Shown piece after piece: positions 34,665 through 47,147 of a DNA stretch of 64,000 bases. Both the position numbers and the translations under genes were made by a program. Within the stretch, counting starts at the first letter, position 1; each line of letters begins with the position of its first letter. The notes below the pieces were generated by a model, which saw only the letters and a list, made by a program, of their open reading frames with translations, was not told where the DNA came from and ran no database searches. Source of the DNA: an uncultured Enterobacteriaceae bacterium (GTDB lineage Bacteria > Pseudomonadota > Gammaproteobacteria > Burkholderiales > SG8-39); the NCBI GenBank assembly GCA_964651335.1, contig CAZYVT010000007.1, positions 24,893 to 88,892 of the forward strand. The letters are read 5' to 3'.

Positions 34665-37058
34665 TTAGCGGAGGCTGGCGCCGAAACGCCGCCCCAAGAG
34701 GGCGACCAGTGCGGCACACGCCGCATCCGCCTCCGAACCCGTAAGGGCACGTTCAGTATGTTGCATAACTACCCGAAATGCAATGCTTTTTTTCCCTTGC
34801 GGGAGGTTCAGTCCCTGGTAAAGATCAAACAAACCTACGTCCTGGACGATGTCCGGCCTTTCGGCGCTGATCGCGTCAAGGATCCGCCCAACCGCGACGT
34901 TCGAACCCACCAGCAGGGCGATGTCGCGTACCACCGCTGGAAATCTCGGCGGTGCCGAGGGCGTGGGTAACGGGACCCGTTCGAGGCTTGCGGCGTCGAC
35001 TTCGAAAAGTACGACCGCTTGCGGCAGATCGTACTTCTGCTGCCATCGCGGGTGCAGCTCGCCCAGCGAGCCGATCTCGGCTCCTTCGAGCAGCACGCTC
35101 GCCGCGCGGCCCGGATGGAGCGCCGGATGCACGATCGCCTCGAACTTCAGCTGTGCTGGATGATAGAGCGCCTCGAGGTCGGACTTGAGGTCATAAAAGT
35201 CCACTGCGCGCGTGGAGTCTCCCCACTGTTCCTCGACGCAAGCGCCAAAGGCGGCCGCACCGACGCGGATTGGTTGCGCGACCCCCGCCACCGACAGCGG
35301 ACCGTCTATCACTTGCGGGTCGCGGCGGTACACGCGCCCGATCTCGAACACGCGGATCCGAGACAGTTTCCGCGCCTGGTTGTAGCGCACGTTCGCGACC
35401 AGAGATCCGATCAGCGTGGAACGCATGACCGAGAGCTGGCTCGCGATCGGATTGAGCAGGCGAATCGGATTCGATTCGCCGGCAAAATCCGCCTCCCAAT
35501 CCGGCTCGACGAACGCGAAGTTGATCGTCTCGTGGTAGTCGCACGCCGCGAGCCGCTCGCGCACCGCGTGCAGCGACCGGCTGGTCTCCGAAGGCGCGCT
35601 CATCCTGGCAAGGGTCCTCGGCGGATGGGCGGGGATGTTTTCGAAGCCGTGAATCCGCGCCACCTCCTCGATCAAGTCCTCCTCCGTCTCGAGGTCGAAG
35701 CGGTGCGGAGGCGGCGAGACCACGAACGCGGCGTCGGCGCCGCCGCCCTCGCGCCGCGCCGGAAGCGCAAGGCGCGCGAATGTGTCCGCCATCTCGTCCG
35801 TCGCGATCGGCATGCCAATGACCTTCTGCGCGCGCGCGACGCGCATGCGTACCGGCTTTCGCTCCGGGAGACGGGTGACCGTGTCGTCGACCGGCCCGGG
35901 TTCGCCGCCGCAGATTTCGCGCACGAGCCGCGTGATGTACTCGATGTGATCGGCCGTGGTGGCGAAGTCGACGCCGCGCTCGAAGCGGTGACCCGCATCG
36001 GTGGTAAAGCCCAAGCGACGGGCCCGCCCTGCAATCGCCTGCGGCCACCAGAACGCCGCCTCGATGTAGATCGCGGTAGTGTCCGGCGAGACCGCGGTCT
36101 GTTCACCGCCCATCACGCCGGCGAGCGCTTCCACGCCGCGCTCGTCGGCAATCACGCCCAGGGTAGCGTCCACAGCGACCGTCTGGCCGTTCAGCAGCTC
36201 GACCGTTTCGCCCGCTCGGCCCCAGCGCACGACCAGCCCGCCCAGCACCTTGCCCAGGTCGAAGATGTGCGACGGGCGACCGAGCTCGAGCATCACGTAG
36301 TTCGAGATGTCGACCAGCGCGGAAATCGGCCGCTGGCCGGCTCGTTCGAGCCGCAGCTTCATCCAGTCGGGCGTCGCAGCGCGTGCGTTCACTCCGCGCA
36401 CCACGCGGCCGGAAAAGCGACCACACAGGTCAGGTGCCTCGATGCGCACCGGAAGCGTTTCGGCAAGGCATGCCGACACTGGCGTGAACGCCGGCGGCGT
36501 CAGCGCCGCGCGGGTCAGCGCCGCCACCTCCCGCGCCACGCCCAGAACAGAAAGGCAGTCGCCGCGGTTCGGCGTCAGGCTGACCGCGAACACGCGCTCG
36601 TCCAGATCGAGCGTACAACGCACGTTTTCGCCCGTCTCCGCATCGGCAGGCAGCTCGAGCAGGCCCGCGTGATCATCCGAAAGTCCCAGTTCGCGCGCCG
36701 AGCAGAGCATCCCGAAACTCTCGATGCCGCGCATCCTCGCCTGCTTGATCTCCAGACCGCCCGGCAACCGCGCGCCGGGAAGCGCCAGGGGCGCCTTCAT
36801 CCCGGCGCGAACATTCGGCGCTCCGCAGACCACCTGCAGCGGTCCGCTGCCCGCGTCCACTCTGCACACGGTGAGCTGATCGGCGTTGGGATGCCGATCG
36901 ACCGAGAGCACGTCCGCCACCACCACGCCGGAACACGCAGGCCCAACGGGTTCGCAGGACTCCACTTCCAGTCCGGACATTGTGAGCAAGTGCGCCAGCT
37001 CTTCGGCCGCAAGCGGCGGATCGCAGAAGCTTCGCAGCCAGTTTTCAGGAACGTTCAT
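34665..37058 (-). CDS. pheT: phenylalanine--tRNA ligase beta subunit
   Basis: MNVPENWLRSFCDP start (ATG 37058; the track uses TTG 37079). It has B3/4, B5 and FDX-ACB regions and is about 797 aa. Confidence 0.95.
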   Translation of the reverse strand: MNVPENWLRSFCDPPLAAEELAHLLTMSGLEVESCEPVGPACSGVVVADVLSVDRHPNADQLTVCRVDAGSGPLQVVCGAPNVRAGMKAPLALPGARLPGGLEIKQARMRGIESFGMLCSARELGLSDDHAGLLELPADAETGENVRCTLDLDERVFAVSLTPNRGDCLSVLGVAREVAALTRAALTPPAFTPVSACLAETLPVRIEAPDLCGRFSGRVVRGVNARAATPDWMKLRLERAGQRPISALVDISNYVMLELGRPSHIFDLGKVLGGLVVRWGRAGETVELLNGQTVAVDATLGVIADERGVEALAGVMGGEQTAVSPDTTAIYIEAAFWWPQAIAGRARRLGFTTDAGHRFERGVDFATTADHIEYITRLVREICGGEPGPVDDTVTRLPERKPVRMRVARAQKVIGMPIATDEMADTFARLALPARREGGGADAAFVVSPPPHRFDLETEEDLIEEVARIHGFENIPAHPPRTLARMSAPSETSRSLHAVRERLAACDYHETINFAFVEPDWEADFAGESNPIRLLNPIASQLSVMRSTLIGSLVANVRYNQARKLSRIRVFEIGRVYRRDPQVIDGPLSVAGVAQPIRVGAAAFGACVEEQWGDSTRAVDFYDLKSDLEALYHPAQLKFEAIVHPALHPGRAASVLLEGAEIGSLGELHPRWQQKYDLPQAVVLFEVDAASLERVPLPTPSAPPRFPAVVRDIALLVGSNVAVGRILDAISAERPDIVQDVGLFDLYQGLNLPQGKKSIAFRVVMQHTERALTGSEADAACAALVALLGRRFGASLR

Positions 37059-39508: not shown

Positions 39509-41410
39509 CTACGCGCCCGCCTCGCTGCGGAGGCGTGCAGTGAACGACTCGAGCGCCATGGCCCCGAGATCTTCACCGCCGCGCGTACGCACGGCCACCG
39601 TTCCGGCCTGCATCTCCTTCGCCCCCACGATCAGCTGGTACGGGAGCTTTTGCAGGCTATGTTCTCGAATCTTATAGGAGATTTTTTCGTTCCGCAAATC
39701 TGCAGAGGCGCGGAAGCCGGCCTGCCGCAGGCGTTCCGCGACATCCGCCGCGTAGGTCGCCTGATGCTCCGAAATGTTCAGCACCACCACCTGCTCGGGC
39801 GCGAGCCACAGCGGGAATGCACCGGCGTAATGCTCGATCAGAATGCCGATGAAGCGCTCCATCGAGCCGACGATCGCACGATGCAGCATCACCGGAGTGT
39901 GGCGCCTGTTGTCCTCGGCGACATACTCCGCACCGAGAAGTCCCGGCATGCTGAAATCCACCTGCATGGTGCCGCATTGCCATGAGCGGCCGAGGCTATC
40001 CTTCAAATGGTATTCAATCTTGGGCCCGTAGAATGCGCCTTCGCCCGACAATACCGAAAACTCCACGCCGGACCGACGAAGGGCATCCATGAGCGCGCTC
40101 TCCGCCTTGTCCCAGACCTCGTCGGAGCCGATGCGCTTTTCCGGCCGCGTCGCGGCCTTGTAGATGATGTCGCTGAAACCAAAGCGCGCATACACCTTCT
40201 GCAGCAGCGCGGTGTAGTTCACGCATTCGTCGAGGACCTGATCCTCGGTGCAGAAGATGTGCCCGTCGTCCTGCACGAATCCGCGCACGCGCAGCAGGCC
40301 GTGCAGCGCGCCGGAGGGCTCGTTGCGGTGGCACGACCCGAACTCGCCGTAGCGCAGCGGCAGATCGCGGTAGCTCCGCACGCCCTTGTTGTAGATCAGG
40401 ATGTGCCCGGGACAGTTCATCGGCTTGATCGCGTAGTCGCGATTCTCCGACGAGGTCGTGAACATGCTGTCGCGGAAGTTTTCCCAGTGCCCGGTGCGCC
40501 GCCACAGAGCCACGTCAAGAATTTGCGGCCCGCGCACCTCGCGGTAGCCGTTTTCGCGGTACACGCGCCGCATGTACTGTTCCACCTGCTGCCACAGGCT
40601 CCAGCCCTTCGGGTGCCAGAAGACCAGGCCCGGAGCCTCTTCCTGCATGTGGAACAGGTCGAGTTGCGTGCCGAGGCGGCGGTGATCGCGCTGTTCGGCC
40701 TCCTCGAGCATCTTCAGGTGCGCGTCGAGATCCTCCTTGTTCGCCCAGGCGGTGCCGTAGATCCGCTGCAGCATTTCGTTCTTCGAATCGCCGCGCCAGT
40801 ACGCGCCCGCCACGCGCATCAGCTTGAACGCCTTGATCTTGCCGGTCGATGGAACGTGCGGGCCCCGGCACAGGTCCGTGAAGTTGCCCTGCTCGTACAG
40901 CGAGATCGCATCGCCCTCCGGAATCGCGCTGATGATTTCGGCCTTGTACAGCTCGCCCTGGTCGAGGAAGAATTTCACCGCTTCAGCGCGCGCCATTTCC
41001 CTGCGCAACACCGGCAGATCGCGTCTTGCGATCTCGGTCATTCGCTGCTCGATCGCCCCGAGATCCTCTGGCGTGAACGGCCGCGGGTACGAGAAGTCGT
41101 AGTAGAAGCCGTTCTCGATCACCGGTCCGATGGTGACCTGCGCCTCGGGGAAGAGCTCCTTGACCGCGTGCGCCAGCAGGTGCGCGGCGGAGTGGCGCAG
41201 GACCTCTACACCCGCGGAATCCCTGTCGGTGACGATCGCGACATCGGCGTCGGACTCGATGCGGAAGTTCGTGTCGACCAGCTTGCCGTCCACCTTGCCG
41301 GCGAGCGCCGCGCGCGCCAGCCCTGCACCGATCGACGCGGCGACCTCCGCCACGGTTACTGGACCGGGGAAGCTTTTGACGGAACTGTCCGGAAGCTTGA
41401 TCTTCGGCAA
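39509..41410 (-). CDS. thrS: threonine--tRNA ligase
   Basis: 633 aa that aligns from residue 1 with E. coli ThrS (MPxIxLPDxS...). TTG start at 41410. Confidence 0.95.
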
Positions 41411-41417
41411 GAGGTTC

Positions 41418-41462
41418 TGGTAGGCGCGATTGGACTCGAACCAACGACCCCTACCATGTCAA
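41418..41462 (-). repeat. 45-nt duplicate of the 3' half of tRNA-Val (att-type direct repeat, island distal end)
   Basis: TGGTAGGCGCGATTGGACTCGAACCAACGACCCCTACCATGTCAA is identical to 47049-47093. The sequences differ on both sides of the repeat. Confidence 0.9.
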
Positions 41463-41601
41463 TCTCGCAGCTGGCAATGCGGTCGTTCCGAATCAATATT
41501 TTACGCTACCCGGTTCCGTGGCGGAACGACCGTAGACGCCAGAACCTGACACGATTGGCCTCAAACGTGTACCCACCCAGGGCAGCACCGATCTCGCGCA
41601 T

Positions 41602-41808
41602 TCAGGCCGGAGCGCGCTCCCGGCGCGGCGCGTTTTGCACCAGGTAGTCGAGGATTTCTCCCTGCATGCGCTCGATCTCAAGGCGATAGCCCGAACTCAA
41701 CGCCGACCATTCCTCCGGCCGCGCCGTGTTGCGCAGCGTCTCAAGCGTGTGCTCTAGCTTAGCGAGGCGCTCGCGCGACACCGCCAGCTCCTGCTCGTTA
41801 CGTATCAC
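41602..41808 (-). CDS. small hypothetical helical protein (68 aa), antitoxin-like N-terminal pattern
   Basis: GTG start. MIRNEQELAVSRERLAKLEHTLETLRN... suggests a coiled coil. A short upstream ORF remnant overlaps its start at a GTGA. Confidence 0.4.
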   Translation of the reverse strand: MIRNEQELAVSRERLAKLEHTLETLRNTARPEEWSALSSGYRLEIERMQGEILDYLVQNAPRRERAPA

Positions 41809-42250
41809 GGCATGACCTCCAATAATCCGCGCCTGGTTCCATCGCGCTTAGTTTGCCATGTCTCGAGGAACTCCTGCATATCGGCCTCCAGGAGCATGCC
41901 TTGGCGTATCCAGAACACGCTCGCCCCGAATCGCGCCTCCCCCGACGAGGGCAAAGCTGGGCACTCTTGGCTACTCAGGATACCGTTGAGTTAGCAGTTT
42001 GCCGATGAATGGCCGGTTTCTTCCAGGAGCGACAGGCAGGGTTCGGCCAAAAGCAACGGTCATTCGCTACCCCTTAACCTTGGTGAACGGCGGGCCAGCG
42101 CGATGCTCGCCGATGGCACGACGCTGGCGGCCCATCCGTTCCACCTAAAGTTAAAACTCATTGTTCCGCCACCTCGCGGGTTTTCTTCAGAAGTCGCAGC
42201 GCCAAGGGCTCATTCGCGAGGTATCGGCAACAATCAGAAATTCAGACGCG

Positions 42251-42853
42251 CTATTGGCTGGAAGGAATGCTTAGCACGGCTTGCTCAACCACCTGCAGCA
42301 ACTTCTTCCGACTCACTCCGACCTTCGCCATGACACCCAACCCCGTCATCACTGTTGCAAAGTAGTGAGAGAGGACCGCCGGATCAACGCTCCCTGGTAA
42401 CGTGCCAGCGGCACAATCCGCCCGAAACCTATCCCGCAGCAAGGCAACGGAGTTCTCCACGGACGCCGTCAGCGCCTCGCCTATTTTCTTTGGCATCGCC
42501 ACTGACCCGCAACCGGTCGCACCATTGACGACGAAACATCCAGCCGGAAGCTTGGGCGATGTGAGCATACTGACCACCGATACCAAAAAAGAACGCACAG
42601 CCTTGCGCGGATCAGGATCCGCATCAAGCGCCGCCTTGTGCTGAGCACCTTGCTGCGCACCATAGAGGTTCAGAGCGTGCAGGTACAACGAAGCCTTGTC
42701 GCCGAACGCGGCGTAGAGGCTGGGCTTGTTGATTCCCATCGCCTCGGTGAGGTCGGCCATCGACGACCCCTGATAACCATTGCGCCAGAAGATTTCTAGC
42801 GCTTTCGCCAAGGCTTCGTCCTTGTCGAAGGTACGTGGGCGTCCTTTCTCCAT
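42251..42853 (-). CDS. TetR/AcrR family transcriptional regulator
   Basis: MEKGRPRTFDKDEALAKALEIFWRNGYQGSSMADLTEAMGINKPSLYAAFGDK is the canonical TetR HTH. It is divergent from the MBL gene. Confidence 0.85.
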   Translation of the reverse strand: MEKGRPRTFDKDEALAKALEIFWRNGYQGSSMADLTEAMGINKPSLYAAFGDKASLYLHALNLYGAQQGAQHKAALDADPDPRKAVRSFLVSVVSMLTSPKLPAGCFVVNGATGCGSVAMPKKIGEALTASVENSVALLRDRFRADCAAGTLPGSVDPAVLSHYFATVMTGLGVMAKVGVSRKKLLQVVEQAVLSIPSSQ

Positions 42854-42972
42854 TTTTTGCCCCTTGCAGAAAGCTGTTGACATTAATTGTACCACTCGGT
42901 ATAGTTTGTACCGCCCGGTACAGATATGCCGCTTCCAGTCCCGTTTTCCAACTCCTCAAAAGGGGTCACAAA

Positions 42973-44118
42973 ATGAAAGAAATGTTCTCGCCTAACAGAA
43001 GCGGCTTACATGCTTTGGTACGGAATCGCCTCGTCACTCTTGCTTCAATTTCACTACTTGCCATTGGCATGCAAGGTGTGACGGCTGCATCTGTGAAAGC
43101 TGCTGAAATCAAGGGCACCCAGCCGACGGCCTGGGGACCATCGTATCCCAACATGCCGGAAATTGTGCCGCCAAATGTCCGCGCATCCGAATATGCCGCA
43201 GTCCCGGAAAAGGATGTTCCGCCTATCGACGCTGAAAAAGGGTACCGCGTAGAGAGCTTCGGTGGCGGAGTCTATATGGTTACCGAGGGCGCATATCAAA
43301 TGATGCTGGTGGTGTCGGATGCTGGAGTCATTGTTGTGGACGCACCGCCAACCATAGGGCCCAAGATTCTGAAAGCAGTTCAGGATGTTGCGCCAAAGAA
43401 GAAAATCGCGGCTCTCATATACAGCCACGCGCATATCGATCACATCGGATTTGCCGGTGAAATAGTCAAAACCAATCCGACCATGAAAATTATCGCCCAC
43501 GACGAAACGAAGAAGATTCTTGTACGGGCGAACGATCCAACCCGTCCACTACCAACGCTGACGTTCAAGAGTCAGGACAAGAATTACCCGTTCAGAATAG
43601 GAAATCAAACACTACAGCTCCAGTATCCTGGCCCAAATCACGTGGCTGGCAATATCGGGATTTACCATTCAGAACAAAAGGTGTTGATGCTGGTGGACGT
43701 AATATTTCCGGGCTGGATGATGTGGCGGCGCTTTGCCGTGTCTCAGGATATTCCGGGCTACTTCAATGTGGTGAAGACACTTAACGCACGGTGGGACTAC
43801 AAAGCCCTGATTGCCGGACACGTTGGGAGAACTGGAACACGATCGGATGCTGATGCACAGCTCGAATTTATGACGGATCTGCACGATGCAGCGTATGAAG
43901 GACTCACGACCATAAAACCGGGTACAACTGTCAATCCGAAGAATGGAAATAACCCGTGGGCGTTTTTCAGAGACTATATCGATCAGGTAACAAATCACTG
44001 TGTCAACAAAGTCAGTCCCAAGTGGGCTTCTCGACTTGCGGCGTTCGATGTGTGGATCTACGATCAATGTGCAGCAATGGAGCAAAGTCTTCGGATCGAT
44101 GGGCCAAGCCTGAAATAG
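42973..44118 (+). CDS. MBL-fold metallo-hydrolase, secreted
   Basis: Start at MKEMFSPNRSG with a signal-like LASISLLAIGMQGVTAASVKA. HxHxDH motif YSHAHIDHIG, with His residues later in the protein. Confidence 0.8.
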   Translation: MKEMFSPNRSGLHALVRNRLVTLASISLLAIGMQGVTAASVKAAEIKGTQPTAWGPSYPNMPEIVPPNVRASEYAAVPEKDVPPIDAEKGYRVESFGGGVYMVTEGAYQMMLVVSDAGVIVVDAPPTIGPKILKAVQDVAPKKKIAALIYSHAHIDHIGFAGEIVKTNPTMKIIAHDETKKILVRANDPTRPLPTLTFKSQDKNYPFRIGNQTLQLQYPGPNHVAGNIGIYHSEQKVLMLVDVIFPGWMMWRRFAVSQDIPGYFNVVKTLNARWDYKALIAGHVGRTGTRSDADAQLEFMTDLHDAAYEGLTTIKPGTTVNPKNGNNPWAFFRDYIDQVTNHCVNKVSPKWASRLAAFDVWIYDQCAAMEQSLRIDGPSLK

Positions 44119-44287
44119 CTTTGGCGATTCACACCTCTCCAACGCTCGGACCGCCGATGCCGTTCGAGGTCTACAATAAAATGTCCGATGACGACGCCCG
44201 AGAGGCGCGCCGGTGGGCATCAAGACTCAGGCCGCGACCCGATAACTGAAGCTTGACGTAACGCTGCAAAGCGAAGAGGAGAAAACC

Positions 44288-45196
44288 ATGAATCGTCGGC
44301 GCATCGAATTTCGAACTACATTTTTGTTGCTCGTCGGTCTGACAATCCTGGGATGTTCGGACAATAAACAGACCGGCGCGTCAACCGGGCGCCTGCTCGG
44401 CGCCAACTCCAGCGTGGGTAAAGGGACGGTGAGCAGCTACGCCGAGTTTGACAAGAGCGGCGCACCCAAGGCAATCGGCATCGTTTTTCATGCGGGAGCG
44501 TTGGACGGGCTTCCCAGTGCACCTTCCGACGGGCATCACTGCTTTGACCAGAACAAGGATGAGAAGATTGACTTGGAGAAAGAGTGCTTCGGCGCCCACG
44601 AGTGGGTCATCCCGCTGCCCAGCGAGGCGGCTCGGCGTGCAGAGATTCCGTTCAAATGGGCGGGTTTGAACTGGAACCCGCATGGACATATCCCGCCCGG
44701 GGTGTATGACCTGCCTCATTTCGACGTCCACTTTTACATCGAGCCGATCGAGAATATCTTTGCCATCGCACCGGGTCCCTGCGGCCCTGATAATGTGCGC
44801 TGCGACCAGTTCAAGCTTGCGACCAAGCCGCTGCCGTCCAACTACATGCACGCCGACTTCAAGAGCGTGGATGCGGTGGCTCCGGCGATGGGCGATCACC
44901 TGGTCGACCTGACGAGCCCCGAATTCAACAAGAAGAAGTTCACGCAAACCTGGATCTACGGCGCCTATGACGGTCGCGTCACGTTCTACGAGGAGATGTT
45001 GACGCTCGAGTACTTGTTGAGCCAGCCGGCCACGTGCTTTCCGCTCAAGTCGCCGCCAGCCGTGGGCGTCAGGGGTTACTATCCCACCCAGCACTGTATC
45101 CGCTACCTCGCCCAGGCCAACGAGTACACCGTCTCAATGGAAAATTTCGCGCTGCGTGAAGCCAGCGCTCCCGAAGCTCCCCGAACTGAGCGTTGA
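44288..45196 (+). CDS. hypothetical lipoprotein
   Basis: FLLLVGLTILGCSDNKQ lipobox. 302 aa with an HFDVHFY motif. Family not recognised. Confidence 0.55.
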   Translation: MNRRRIEFRTTFLLLVGLTILGCSDNKQTGASTGRLLGANSSVGKGTVSSYAEFDKSGAPKAIGIVFHAGALDGLPSAPSDGHHCFDQNKDEKIDLEKECFGAHEWVIPLPSEAARRAEIPFKWAGLNWNPHGHIPPGVYDLPHFDVHFYIEPIENIFAIAPGPCGPDNVRCDQFKLATKPLPSNYMHADFKSVDAVAPAMGDHLVDLTSPEFNKKKFTQTWIYGAYDGRVTFYEEMLTLEYLLSQPATCFPLKSPPAVGVRGYYPTQHCIRYLAQANEYTVSMENFALREASAPEAPRTER

Positions 45197-45417
45197 TATG
45201 CGGAGGTGGGGTTTCCAGGCAGGCATGCCCATGGTCGGCTATATCGTCGGCTGGTCGCTTGTAGCGGCCGCCTTCGTGAATGTGAGGACGGGTTTTGTAT
45301 ACCCTCGTTCATTGTTCGGATGTTCTTCGGTTAAGGTGGTCTGTGAGTAATTTATGAGCCTAACCAAGCCTAACCAGTAAGCGGATATCCTTCCATCATT
45401 TGAGAGGAGCGCGGCAC

Positions 45418-46368
45418 TTGTCGGAGAAAAAGGTCATCGCAATCATCGGAGCCACGGGTGCGCAGGGGGGAGGGCTCGTCCGCGCGATCCACGCCGATCG
45501 CGAGGGTCCATTTGTCGCGCGGGCACTCACGCGCAAGCTCGAGTCGGAAAAAGCCCGGGCGCTCGTCAAGCTTGGCGTAGAAGTCGTGGCAGGCGACGCC
45601 GACGATCCGCCAAGCCTAAACCGGGTGTTCGCCGGGGCGTACGGCGCCTACTGCGTCACCAACTTCTGGGAGCACTTCTCGGCGGAACGGGAGGGCGCCC
45701 AGGCCACGGCGATGGCTCGGGCAAGTCGGAAGGCCGGCGTCCAGCACGTCATCTGGTCGACACTCGAGGACACGCGCAAGTGGGTGCCCCTCGACGATGG
45801 CCGGTTGCCGACGCTTCAGGGCAAGTACAAGGTGCCGCACTTCGACTCCAAGGGTTCGGTGGATCGCGTTTTTGCCGAGGAGGCAGGGCCGACCACGTAC
45901 CTTCTCGGCTCATTCTACTGGGAGAATTTCATCTACTTCGGCATGGGGCCGCGGAAGGGGCCCGACGGAGACCTCGTACTCGCGCTGCCGCTCGGGGGCG
46001 TCAAGCTTCCAGGCATCGCAGCCGAGGACATCGGCAAGTGCGCCTATGGTCTGTTCCGTCGCGGCACCGGCACGGTCGGCCAGCGGTTCGGCATCGCCGG
46101 TGAGGTCCTGTCCGGCCCGGAAATGGCGGCGAAGATGGGGCGCGCCCTCGGGCGCAACGTCAGCTTCAATGACGTGCCGTTCGATGTCTACCGCGGCCTG
46201 GGCTTCCCCGGCGCGGAAGATCTCGGCAACATGTTTCAGTTCCAGGCCATTCTCGGCGATGAGTTCCTCCGTAGCCGCGACCCCGAGCGCTCACGCTCGC
46301 TGAACCCGGAGCTGCTCTCGTTCGACGCCTGGCTCGGCGCCAACATTGCTCGCATCCCGATCGGGTAA
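45418..46368 (+). CDS. NmrA-family NAD(P)-binding protein
   Basis: KVIAIIGATGAQGGGLVRA is a Rossmann motif. TTG at 45418 is preceded by GAGGAG. The track start is TTG 45400, in the same frame. Confidence 0.8.
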   Translation: MSEKKVIAIIGATGAQGGGLVRAIHADREGPFVARALTRKLESEKARALVKLGVEVVAGDADDPPSLNRVFAGAYGAYCVTNFWEHFSAEREGAQATAMARASRKAGVQHVIWSTLEDTRKWVPLDDGRLPTLQGKYKVPHFDSKGSVDRVFAEEAGPTTYLLGSFYWENFIYFGMGPRKGPDGDLVLALPLGGVKLPGIAAEDIGKCAYGLFRRGTGTVGQRFGIAGEVLSGPEMAAKMGRALGRNVSFNDVPFDVYRGLGFPGAEDLGNMFQFQAILGDEFLRSRDPERSRSLNPELLSFDAWLGANIARIPIG

Positions 46369-46432
46369 GGTCGGGGAGAGGCATCTCAAACTCACCGTGC
46401 CACACTGGTGGCCCTGGCGTTCGACAGCCTAG

Positions 46433-47035
46433 GCACCAAACCCGGACCTGACGCGGGAGCAGTTCGTTGCGCTCGTGGGCGCCGCAACCGAACAGAAACG
46501 CGCGCCCTATCTCGCGGACCTGATTACCGTCGCCGTGATGACCGGGTGCCGTCGGGGCGAGCTTCTCGGGCTGGAGTGGTCTCGGGTTGGTCTCGAAGCT
46601 AACACGATCCGCCTTGGCGCATCGGATACCAAGGCGGGTAAGGCGCGGTTGGTGGCGATCAACCAGGCGGCACGGGAAGCGCTGCTGCGGCGAAGCGAGT
46701 ACCGGGCGAAGCATTGTCCGGACACTACCTGGGTATTCTGTGGGCGCCAGGGCAAACGCATAGCGGGAATCAAGACGTGCTTCCGCCGTGCGTGTAAAAA
46801 CGCCGAGCTGGTCGGCGTGCAATTCCACGATCTGCGGCATACGTGCGGATTGTGGCTAGCGCAGGCGGGCGTGCCGCAAAGCCATATCGCGGAGGTGCTG
46901 GGTCATAGCACCTTGCGCATGACGGAGCGGTACACGCACATGGCGCCGGTGACGGCTCGGGCTGCGGTAGAGAAGCTGGAGGGGGTACCCAAAATGGTAC
47001 CCACTGGACCAGCGGAGGAAGTTGCAGCGTTGTAA
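46433..47035 (+). pseudogene. truncated tyrosine recombinase/integrase (C-terminal catalytic domain only)
   Basis: TGCRRGELLGLEW...FHDLRHTCGLWLAQAGV...LGHSTLRMTERYTH carries the R...HxxR...Y catalytic residues. The frame is closed by TAG at 46430-46432, and only about 200 codons remain, with no N-terminal SAM-like or arm-binding domain. Confidence 0.75.
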
Positions 47036-47048
47036 CTGCTTGAAAGTT

Positions 47049-47125
47049 TGGTAGGCGCGATTGGACTCGAACCAACGACCCCTACCATGTCAAGGTAGTG
47101 CTCTAACCAGCTGAGCTACGCGCCT
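47049..47125 (-). tRNA. tRNA-Val (anticodon GAC)
   Basis: Reverse complement AGGCGCGTAGCTCAGCTGGTTAGAGCACTACCTTGACATGGTAGGGGTCGTTGGTTCGAGTCCAATCGCGCCTACCA. The anticodon loop is TTGACAT. Confidence 0.9.
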
Positions 47126-47147
47126 GAAAGCGGCGAATTCTACCGCA

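Follow-up and report, generated by a model that had tools for sequence, protein, structure and literature searches.

The 64-kb stretch of DNA analysed here (the window) contains, at 41418–47093, a segment that is very probably the fixed remnant of a small integrative element inserted by a tyrosine integrase into the gene for tRNA-Val(GAC). On sequence comparison with other genomes of the same Burkholderiales family, the insertion itself, the regeneration of the tRNA gene by element-supplied sequence, the truncation of element genes, and the relationship to a family of similar elements can be regarded as established. For annotation, this means that 41418–47093 should be treated as horizontally acquired DNA, and that the integrase and DUF6932 reading frames within it should be treated as pseudogenes.

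Attachment-site repeats and empty sites

The segment is bounded by two copies of a 45-nucleotide (nt) sequence. The copies at 41418–41462 and 47049–47093 are identical at 45 of 45 positions and lie in the same orientation, exactly as claimed in an earlier note on this DNA, which had recognized the repeat as the 3′ part of tRNA-Val. Its statement that the sequence outside the copies differs on both flanks was also borne out. A pattern search allowing three mismatches found only these two copies in the 4.0-Mb assembly, and, by our own estimate, the chance expectation of an exact 45-nt repeat in 64 kb is about 1e-18.

The copy at 47049–47093 forms part of an intact tRNA-Val(GAC) gene on the minus strand (47049–47125; ARAGORN, and Rfam with 67.6 bits), which is the sole gene of its kind in the assembly, where 39 tRNA genes are present in all. 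Read in the orientation of the tRNA (TTGACAT GGTAG ... ACCA), the repeat starts at position 32, where the anticodon loop begins, and ends with the encoded CCA. The other copy, at 41418–41462 on the minus strand, comprises tRNA positions 32–76 at the junction far from the integrase gene, and obtains no tRNA score in either ARAGORN or Rfam. This fragment is located upstream of thrS, 7 nt from its TTG start codon, and the interval between the repeats is 5,586 bp. The functional tRNA gene is composed of the native 5′ side and an element-derived 3′ side, and the native 3′ half has been displaced and is what now lies next to thrS. An identity block starting at the anticodon loop fits the anticodon-centred (A-type) class of attachment sites, in which case the crossover would have taken place in or near that loop. 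As a separate observation, the anticodon loop of tRNA-Val(GAC) reads TTGACA, which equals the −35 consensus and lies 17 nt ahead of TCGAGT.

Forty relatives were searched with the thrS-side and ppx-side flanks of the segment, and the corresponding regions were then retrieved. Five of them (G005, G013, G009, G010, and G006) have a single complete tRNA-Val(GAC) gene, the CCA end of which lies 5 nt before the thrS TTG codon. The thrS-side flank of the window (...cggcaagaggttc followed by TGGTAGG) aligns with these empty-site junctions. The earlier note had proposed looking for such sites in relatives; in none of these five genomes was a duplicated tRNA half found in the absence of an island. The empty sites in five close relatives indicate that the 5,586 bp between the repeats are an insertion, and the interpretation given in the note, like its observation, is upheld. 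In four of these genomes (G005, G009, G010, and G006), a gene for a SixA-like phosphohistidine phosphatase (MELILWRHA...; L043 1073–1600) lies between tRNA-Val and ppx. The window has no SixA-like gene at this place, a gap of 22 nt (47126–47147) separating tRNA-Val from the stop codon of ppx, and a 48%-identical copy is found on contig C2.

Integrase, related elements and the distal arm

A tyrosine-integrase pseudogene encoding the catalytic domain only (46433–47035, plus strand; PF00589, E 2e-32) ends 13 nt before the repeat, which substantiates the integrase fragment that had been reported beside the intact tRNA. It aligns to residues 154–347 of an intact 360-residue integrase (genome G234) with 63% identity, and it is 71% identical to a homologue from a Burkholderiales metagenome-assembled genome (L053), with 16 residues missing after the conserved IPNP motif. 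The frame is closed upstream by a TAG codon at 46430–46432, and its first start codon is a GTG at 46475. The catalytic residues are kept, and the N-terminal part of 153 residues, responsible for arm binding and core binding, is gone. The decay described in the earlier note is thus seen in this truncation, in the absence of excisionase-like and Rep genes, and in the shortening of the DUF6932 gene.

The closest full-length integrases are the intact protein of G234 and a 361-residue open frame of G196, both encoded beside tRNA-Val(CAC), and a full-length member of the family matches phrog_1 (integrase). Next to the integrase gene, the G234 element has two further genes, one for an HTH_17 protein that matches the excisionase family phrog_2907 and one for a Rep_trans protein (PF02486) that matches phrog_453 (replication initiation). 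In G196, the integrase gene is followed by an HTH_17 gene, and the contig ends before any Rep_trans gene could show. A tblastn search of the window revealed no homologues of the G234 HTH_17 and Rep_trans proteins, and the combination of integrase, excisionase, and Rep_trans genes that marks a Rep_trans integrative mobilizable element does not occur there. A search for the far end of the G234 element found no repeat of its own tRNA within 20 kb.

The nearest other integrase of the genome under study is a 370-residue open frame on contig C3 (35.7–38.0 kb), which lies beside a Rep_trans homologue. It is about 31% identical to the integrase family of the window and 37% identical to L053. The C3 element, with its integrase and Rep_trans homologue, is apparently intact. 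From these identities, the genome appears to encode no helper integrase for the segment.

The following course of events would account for these features. A tyrosine integrase would have recombined the attachment site of the element (attP) with the single-copy tRNA-Val(GAC) gene. The element would have carried a copy of tRNA positions 32–76, completing the functional tRNA gene at 47049–47125, and the native 3′ half (41418–41462) would have been pushed 5.6 kb off, remaining attached to thrS. Internal deletions would then have removed the first 153 codons of the integrase gene and most of the DUF6932 gene, together with the excisionase-like gene (HTH_17) and any gene for a Rep_trans protein. The element would in this way have lost its own ability to excise, leaving intact cargo and two attachment-site (att) junctions. 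We infer this order of events.

Related elements were observed at the same tRNA gene in other genomes. The distal arm (described below) and the 3′ end of the integrase gene both recur in G021; G199 shares about 40 nt of the arm together with the integrase 3′ end, and G004 shares the distal arm and, as read by eye, a short look-alike stretch before the tRNA. The 6.2-kb island of G021 at tRNA-Val(GAC) (L048, G021:C70:30000-38200) contains an internally deleted integrase gene, an HTH_17 gene, merR, merT, merP, and merA (named from translations of open reading frames, ORFs), and a class III cyclase-like gene. In G004 and G199, 0.9-kb remnants are located between two copies of the tRNA half. The remnant of G004 contains a DUF6932 pair, and that of G199 (L128 766–1375) contains only higB-like and higA-like genes, which are oriented away from thrS. 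A gene for a 68-residue protein, present also in the window, is kept near the tRNA in G193 and G171 and lies 12 nt from thrS in G125, and G207 carries tandem distal arms. Collectively, these elements show that tRNA-Val(GAC)/thrS is a hotspot at which integration has recurred within this Burkholderiales family, with a mer operon, higBA, DUF6932 pairs, and an apparently TetR-controlled metallo-β-lactamase (MBL)-fold hydrolase among its cargo. In G004 (L047, G004:C10:53300-64800), thrS is separated from the displaced tRNA half by an extra 8.4 kb with no further att copy, the genes of which, likewise named from ORF translations, are those for a histidine kinase, an ANTAR response regulator, and a 1,810-residue PAS-GGDEF-EAL protein.

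The distal arm, which appears to be derived from attP (41463–41565), is about 100 nt long and recurs in nine or more related elements, being 74–87% identical in G004, G021, G180, G183, G194, G196, and G207 (two copies). It includes an inverted repeat, which the earlier note had pointed out and which is indeed present, with 11-bp arms at 41480–41490 (CGGTCGTTCCG) and 41522–41532 (CGGAACGACCG). Within its loop, at 41491–41503 on the plus strand, AATCAATATTTTA is the only match in the 64-kb window to WATCAANNNNTTR, the consensus for integration host factor (IHF); 0.27 matches would be expected by chance in this post hoc search. In nine aligned arms, those of tRNA-Val(CAC) elements included, a 12-pair palindrome is kept, with 95% of the cells paired and changes on both sides at two positions. 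The single changes are mostly compatible with G-U pairing on the plus strand, and the fold of the inverted repeat has a z-score of −2.2. The observed covariation values were reached in 25–37 of 500 shuffles and are within reach of unconstrained related sequences. No Rfam family matched the distal arm or the displaced fragment at E ≤ 0.1.

Two functions had been suggested for the repeat, namely, a binding site for a recombination protein and a terminator. The former gains support from the conserved arm, the symmetry in nine elements, and the IHF match in the loop. An intrinsic terminator was ruled out, given a loop of 31 nt, no T-run, and no match in a terminator scan. The best reading, to which we give a modest preference, is an arm at which integrase or excisionase would dock together with IHF. 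It is unlikely that the repeat represents instead a transfer or replication origin for a Rep_trans protein, or a structured RNA or terminator. MOBT relaxases act at hairpin-containing origins, a gene for a Rep_trans protein (PF02486) is part of the intact sister element of G234, and the preserved pairing, the two double changes, the G-U-compatible single changes, and the fold score would suit such a function. The Rep_trans family includes MOBT relaxases (PMC6499999, PMC5704250). Yet, the missing T-run and the long loop exclude an intrinsic terminator, no Rfam family matches, the covariation is within the range that unconstrained sequences can give, and palindromic protein-binding sites retain symmetry as well. 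Furthermore, the repeat is located at the att-proximal end, where the arm sites of a docking arm are expected.

Cargo genes and the expression of thrS

Six ORFs or pseudogenes occupy the interior of the segment: the 68-residue gene, the genes for a TetR-family regulator, an MBL-fold hydrolase, a lipoprotein, and an NmrA-like protein, and the integrase fragment. The cargo reading frames are intact. The TetR-family regulator (200 residues; 42251–42853, minus strand) matches PF00440 and PF16925, and the MBL-fold metallo-hydrolase (381 residues; 42973–44118, plus strand) matches PF00753. Between them, a promoter scan detected a promoter-like TTGACA-17-TATAGT with 11 of 12 matches (42877–42905, plus strand). 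Two adjacent 16-bp palindromes of the form TGTACCnnnnGGTAyA, TGTACCACTCGGTATA (42888–42903) and TGTACCGCCCGGTACA (42907–42922), overlap the −10 region of this MBL promoter and form a probable double TetR operator. A signal peptide predicted by eye from the N-terminus suggests that the hydrolase is secreted.

In NCBIfam, the MBL-fold protein scores 51 bits for the VarG family, a distant, full-length (architecture-level) match with a cut-off of 750, and 53.6 for bla_class_B_core, with a cut-off of 100. An assignment as a β-lactamase was rejected, every class model remaining far under its cut-off. The protein family comprises 1,674 environmental proteins at E ≤ 1e-20, and Ramlibacter and Polaromonas are among the genera with named members. 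A 76%-identical homologue lies beside a TetR with the same C-terminal domain on an unrelated 216-kb contig; this recurrence makes the TetR–MBL pair look like a unit. Neither a TetR nor a lipoprotein homologue is located within 1.5 kb of the sole orthologue in the bacterial family (G311, 56% identity).

The lipoprotein (302 residues; 44288–45196, plus strand) has the lipobox ILGC and a weak TTHB210-like match, and the NmrA-like NAD(P)-binding protein (316 residues; 45418–46368, plus strand) matches PF05368 with an E value of 9e-46. Homologues of the lipoprotein with 66–79% identity are encoded elsewhere in three congeners, and a 55%-identical paralogue is present on contig C23 of the same genome, whereas MBL and NmrA homologues are absent from all 11 congeners, indicating that the cargo is mosaic. 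A role in a defence system found no support, as PADLOC gave no matches for the MBL, lipoprotein, NmrA, and 68-residue proteins. A prophage was not supported, as Pfam and NCBIfam scans of the interior ORFs revealed no phage-type domain, the cargo not having been run against PHROGs.

The composition of the interior is uneven. Against a genomic guanine-plus-cytosine (GC) content of 65.4%, the MBL gene has 50.5%, lower than 99.9% of the 1-kb windows of the genome. The TetR gene, the lipoprotein gene, and the spacer have 58–59%, and the values for the NmrA gene (65.9%) and the integrase fragment (63.8%) resemble that of the host genome. Sliding-window values are 0.49–0.55 over 42.6–44.2 kb. The lower GC content of the interior claimed in the earlier note is therefore correct in direction; its figure of roughly half is overstated, being approached only by the MBL gene. 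The GC and k-mer profiling that it recommended singled out the TetR–MBL–lipoprotein segment as a compositional outlier, the tetranucleotide distance of this 3-kb block from the genome being at the 99.7th percentile.

Near the thrS end, an intact 68-residue gene (41602–41808, minus strand) accompanies the remnant of a DUF6932 gene (41805–41940, minus strand), which consists of the last 45 codons and aligns to the C-terminus of the G004 protein. The TGA stop codon of the DUF6932 frame overlaps the GTG start codon of the 68-residue gene, giving a 4-nt overlap. In G004, the DUF6932 protein is intact, with 148 residues (PF22014, E 6.5e-25). DNA homology of the window with G004, G193, and G230 ends at 41939–41940, which places a deletion junction there. 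The 310-nt spacer beyond it (41941–42250) has a GC content of 0.577, no convincing ORF, and no homology to the related elements.

The 68-residue protein has no family in Pfam, NCBIfam, PADLOC, or PHROGs. Matches to its gene that are free of internal stops occur in 23 other genomes, mostly over at least 56 of 68 residues, with an almost invariant core, TARPEEWPALSSGYRLEIERMQGEILDYLV / SSGYRLEIERMQGEILDYL (loci L101–L124). DUF6932 is intact in only about five of the 23 genomes with the 68-residue gene. A small gene that outlives DUF6932 is the pattern expected of an antitoxin outliving its toxin, and the two genes are candidates for such a pair. Their pairing is conserved, PADLOC gave a weak candidate match (PDC-M63A, E 1.6e-6), and a literature search with the term DUF6932 retrieved no paper. 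The pair raises the question of a new toxin–antitoxin-like module.

The insertion raises a second question, namely, how expression of the essential thrS operon is maintained when the tRNA promoter no longer reaches it. The thrS TTG codon follows the CCA end of tRNA-Val after 5 nt in relatives and after 7 nt in the window (41404–41462), with no visible Shine-Dalgarno sequence (L043, L044, L045, L051, and L052). A start codon so near the CCA end, with no Shine-Dalgarno sequence, suggests that thrS is transcribed together with the tRNA and that its mRNA is nearly leaderless once the tRNA 3′ end has been processed, and the 5-nt gap in the empty-site relatives leaves no room for a promoter. By eye, a TAnAAT box is located about 10 nt upstream of the tRNA 5′ end in all genomes read. 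The thrS operon is thus probably transcribed from the tRNA-Val promoter under normal circumstances. Since the island cuts this link, a promoter inside it probably now drives thrS.

Candidates for this promoter are that of tetR, with read-through past the DUF6932 remnant and the 68-residue gene, and a −10-like TAAAAT in the conserved arm. The only genes pointing toward thrS are the TetR gene, the DUF6932 remnant, and the 68-residue gene. A consensus scan of 41.4–42.3 kb found no strong sigma-70 promoter toward thrS, and inspection by eye found a weak TAAAAT with a poor −35 region. The higBA pair of G199 points away from thrS, which indicates that read-through from terminal genes is not a general rule. 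We suggest, tentatively, that thrS, and probably infC just downstream, may have become dependent on an island promoter, which, together with toxin–antitoxin addiction, would explain why no remnant at this site has been deleted completely and why the distal arm is kept in every case. Elsewhere in the window, ARAGORN reports a 94-nt tRNA-Ala(TGC) at 34956–35049, which has no Rfam tRNA match at E ≤ 0.1 and is probably a false positive.

Alternative histories and comparison with known systems

Other histories of the interval have to be weighed against a single inserted element that decayed in place. An origin of the 45-nt repeat by local duplication of the tRNA gene or by misassembly, with no site-specific integration, can be given next to no credence. 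Beyond the repeat itself nothing favors it, and it is contradicted by the empty sites, by the integrase fragment at the expected end, and by homologous element ends in other genomes. An assembly artefact is further opposed by an independent Logan contig of run SRR12685296, which is 100% identical to 41433–45681. Successive integrations or cargo captures at the tRNA, i.e., a tandem array later fused by deletion, deserve more attention, even though we consider them the less likely course. In their favor are the hotspot character of the site, the tandem arms of G207, and the extra 8.4 kb of G004 past a 0.9-kb remnant. Moreover, the cargo is heterogeneous in GC content (MBL 0.505, NmrA 0.659, and lipoprotein 0.589), and the lipoprotein has genus-native homologues whereas MBL and NmrA have none. 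However, neither a third, internal att copy nor a second integrase was found in the interval, and the data can be explained just as well by one element whose cargo is mosaic.

It is also quite improbable that the island, defective as it is, could still be excised or moved by a cognate integrase and excisionase supplied in trans. Both 45-nt att copies are exact, the conserved arm has been preserved together with the inverted repeat and the IHF-like site, and the genome itself has an element with integrase and Rep_trans genes on contig C3. Yet, at about 31% identity, the C3 integrase is unlikely to recognise these sites. In addition, no intact integrase at tRNA-Val(GAC) was found among 317 genomes of the family, all close intact ones being located at tRNA-Val(CAC). 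Because of this last result, the ancestral element has to be extrapolated from the tRNA-Val(CAC) sub-lineage, which is about 63–71% identical. This extrapolation weighs against our reading of a fixed, decayed element, as do the deduction of the island's immobility from gene content and the mixed composition of the cargo (MBL versus NmrA), which may have been assembled in more than one event.

Among known systems, cis-mobilizable elements (CIMEs) are decayed integrative elements that have kept attL and attR and lost the genes for recombination and transfer; they are defined by mobilisation in trans. The island of the window resembles them in its perfect att junctions, its cargo, and a recombination module that is lost or shortened. 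It differs from them in that its genome appears to encode no cognate helper integrase.

The DUF6932/68-residue pair shares several traits with toxin-first toxin–antitoxin pairs of the HigBA type on island remnants: the genes overlap by 4 nt at the edge of an element, the minimal remnants in which the pair and the higBA genes of G199 are found at this site are of one kind, and the smaller partner survives far more often than the larger gene. Unlike in HigBA pairs, neither protein has a sequence relation to HigB or HigA, and the 68-residue protein has no family match.

A likeness to Rep_trans/MOBT integrative mobilizable elements is seen in the sister element of G234, which has integrase, HTH_17, and Rep_trans genes. 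In contrast, the MOBT elements that have been described are from Firmicutes (PMC5704250, PMC6499999), and the copy in the window has neither a Rep_trans nor an excisionase gene.

The closest correspondence is with the islands catalogued by Islander (Hudson, Lau and Williams 2015), where a 3′ fragment was recorded in 3,760 of 3,919 islands and anticodon-centred sites in 2,083 (PMC4383910). No design is more frequent in that collection than a regenerated tRNA gene with a displaced 3′ fragment (PMC4383910). As in Islander islands, an intact, regenerated tRNA gene and its cognate fragment in the same orientation lie at the two ends on one replicon. A PF00589 integrase gene of neither Xer nor integron type is found inside the interval and beside the tRNA, here as a C-terminal fragment, and the interval is absent from related genomes, namely, the five with empty sites. 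The difference is that the integrase gene in the window is a pseudogene; Islander itself lists 148 "islands with damage" among its 3,919 (PMC4383910). In the literature searched, no description was found of this integrase lineage or of the tRNA-Val(GAC)/thrS site in Burkholderiales. The island of the window is an ordinary remnant of a tRNA-integrated island, and adds a damaged example to the most frequent class of genomic islands.

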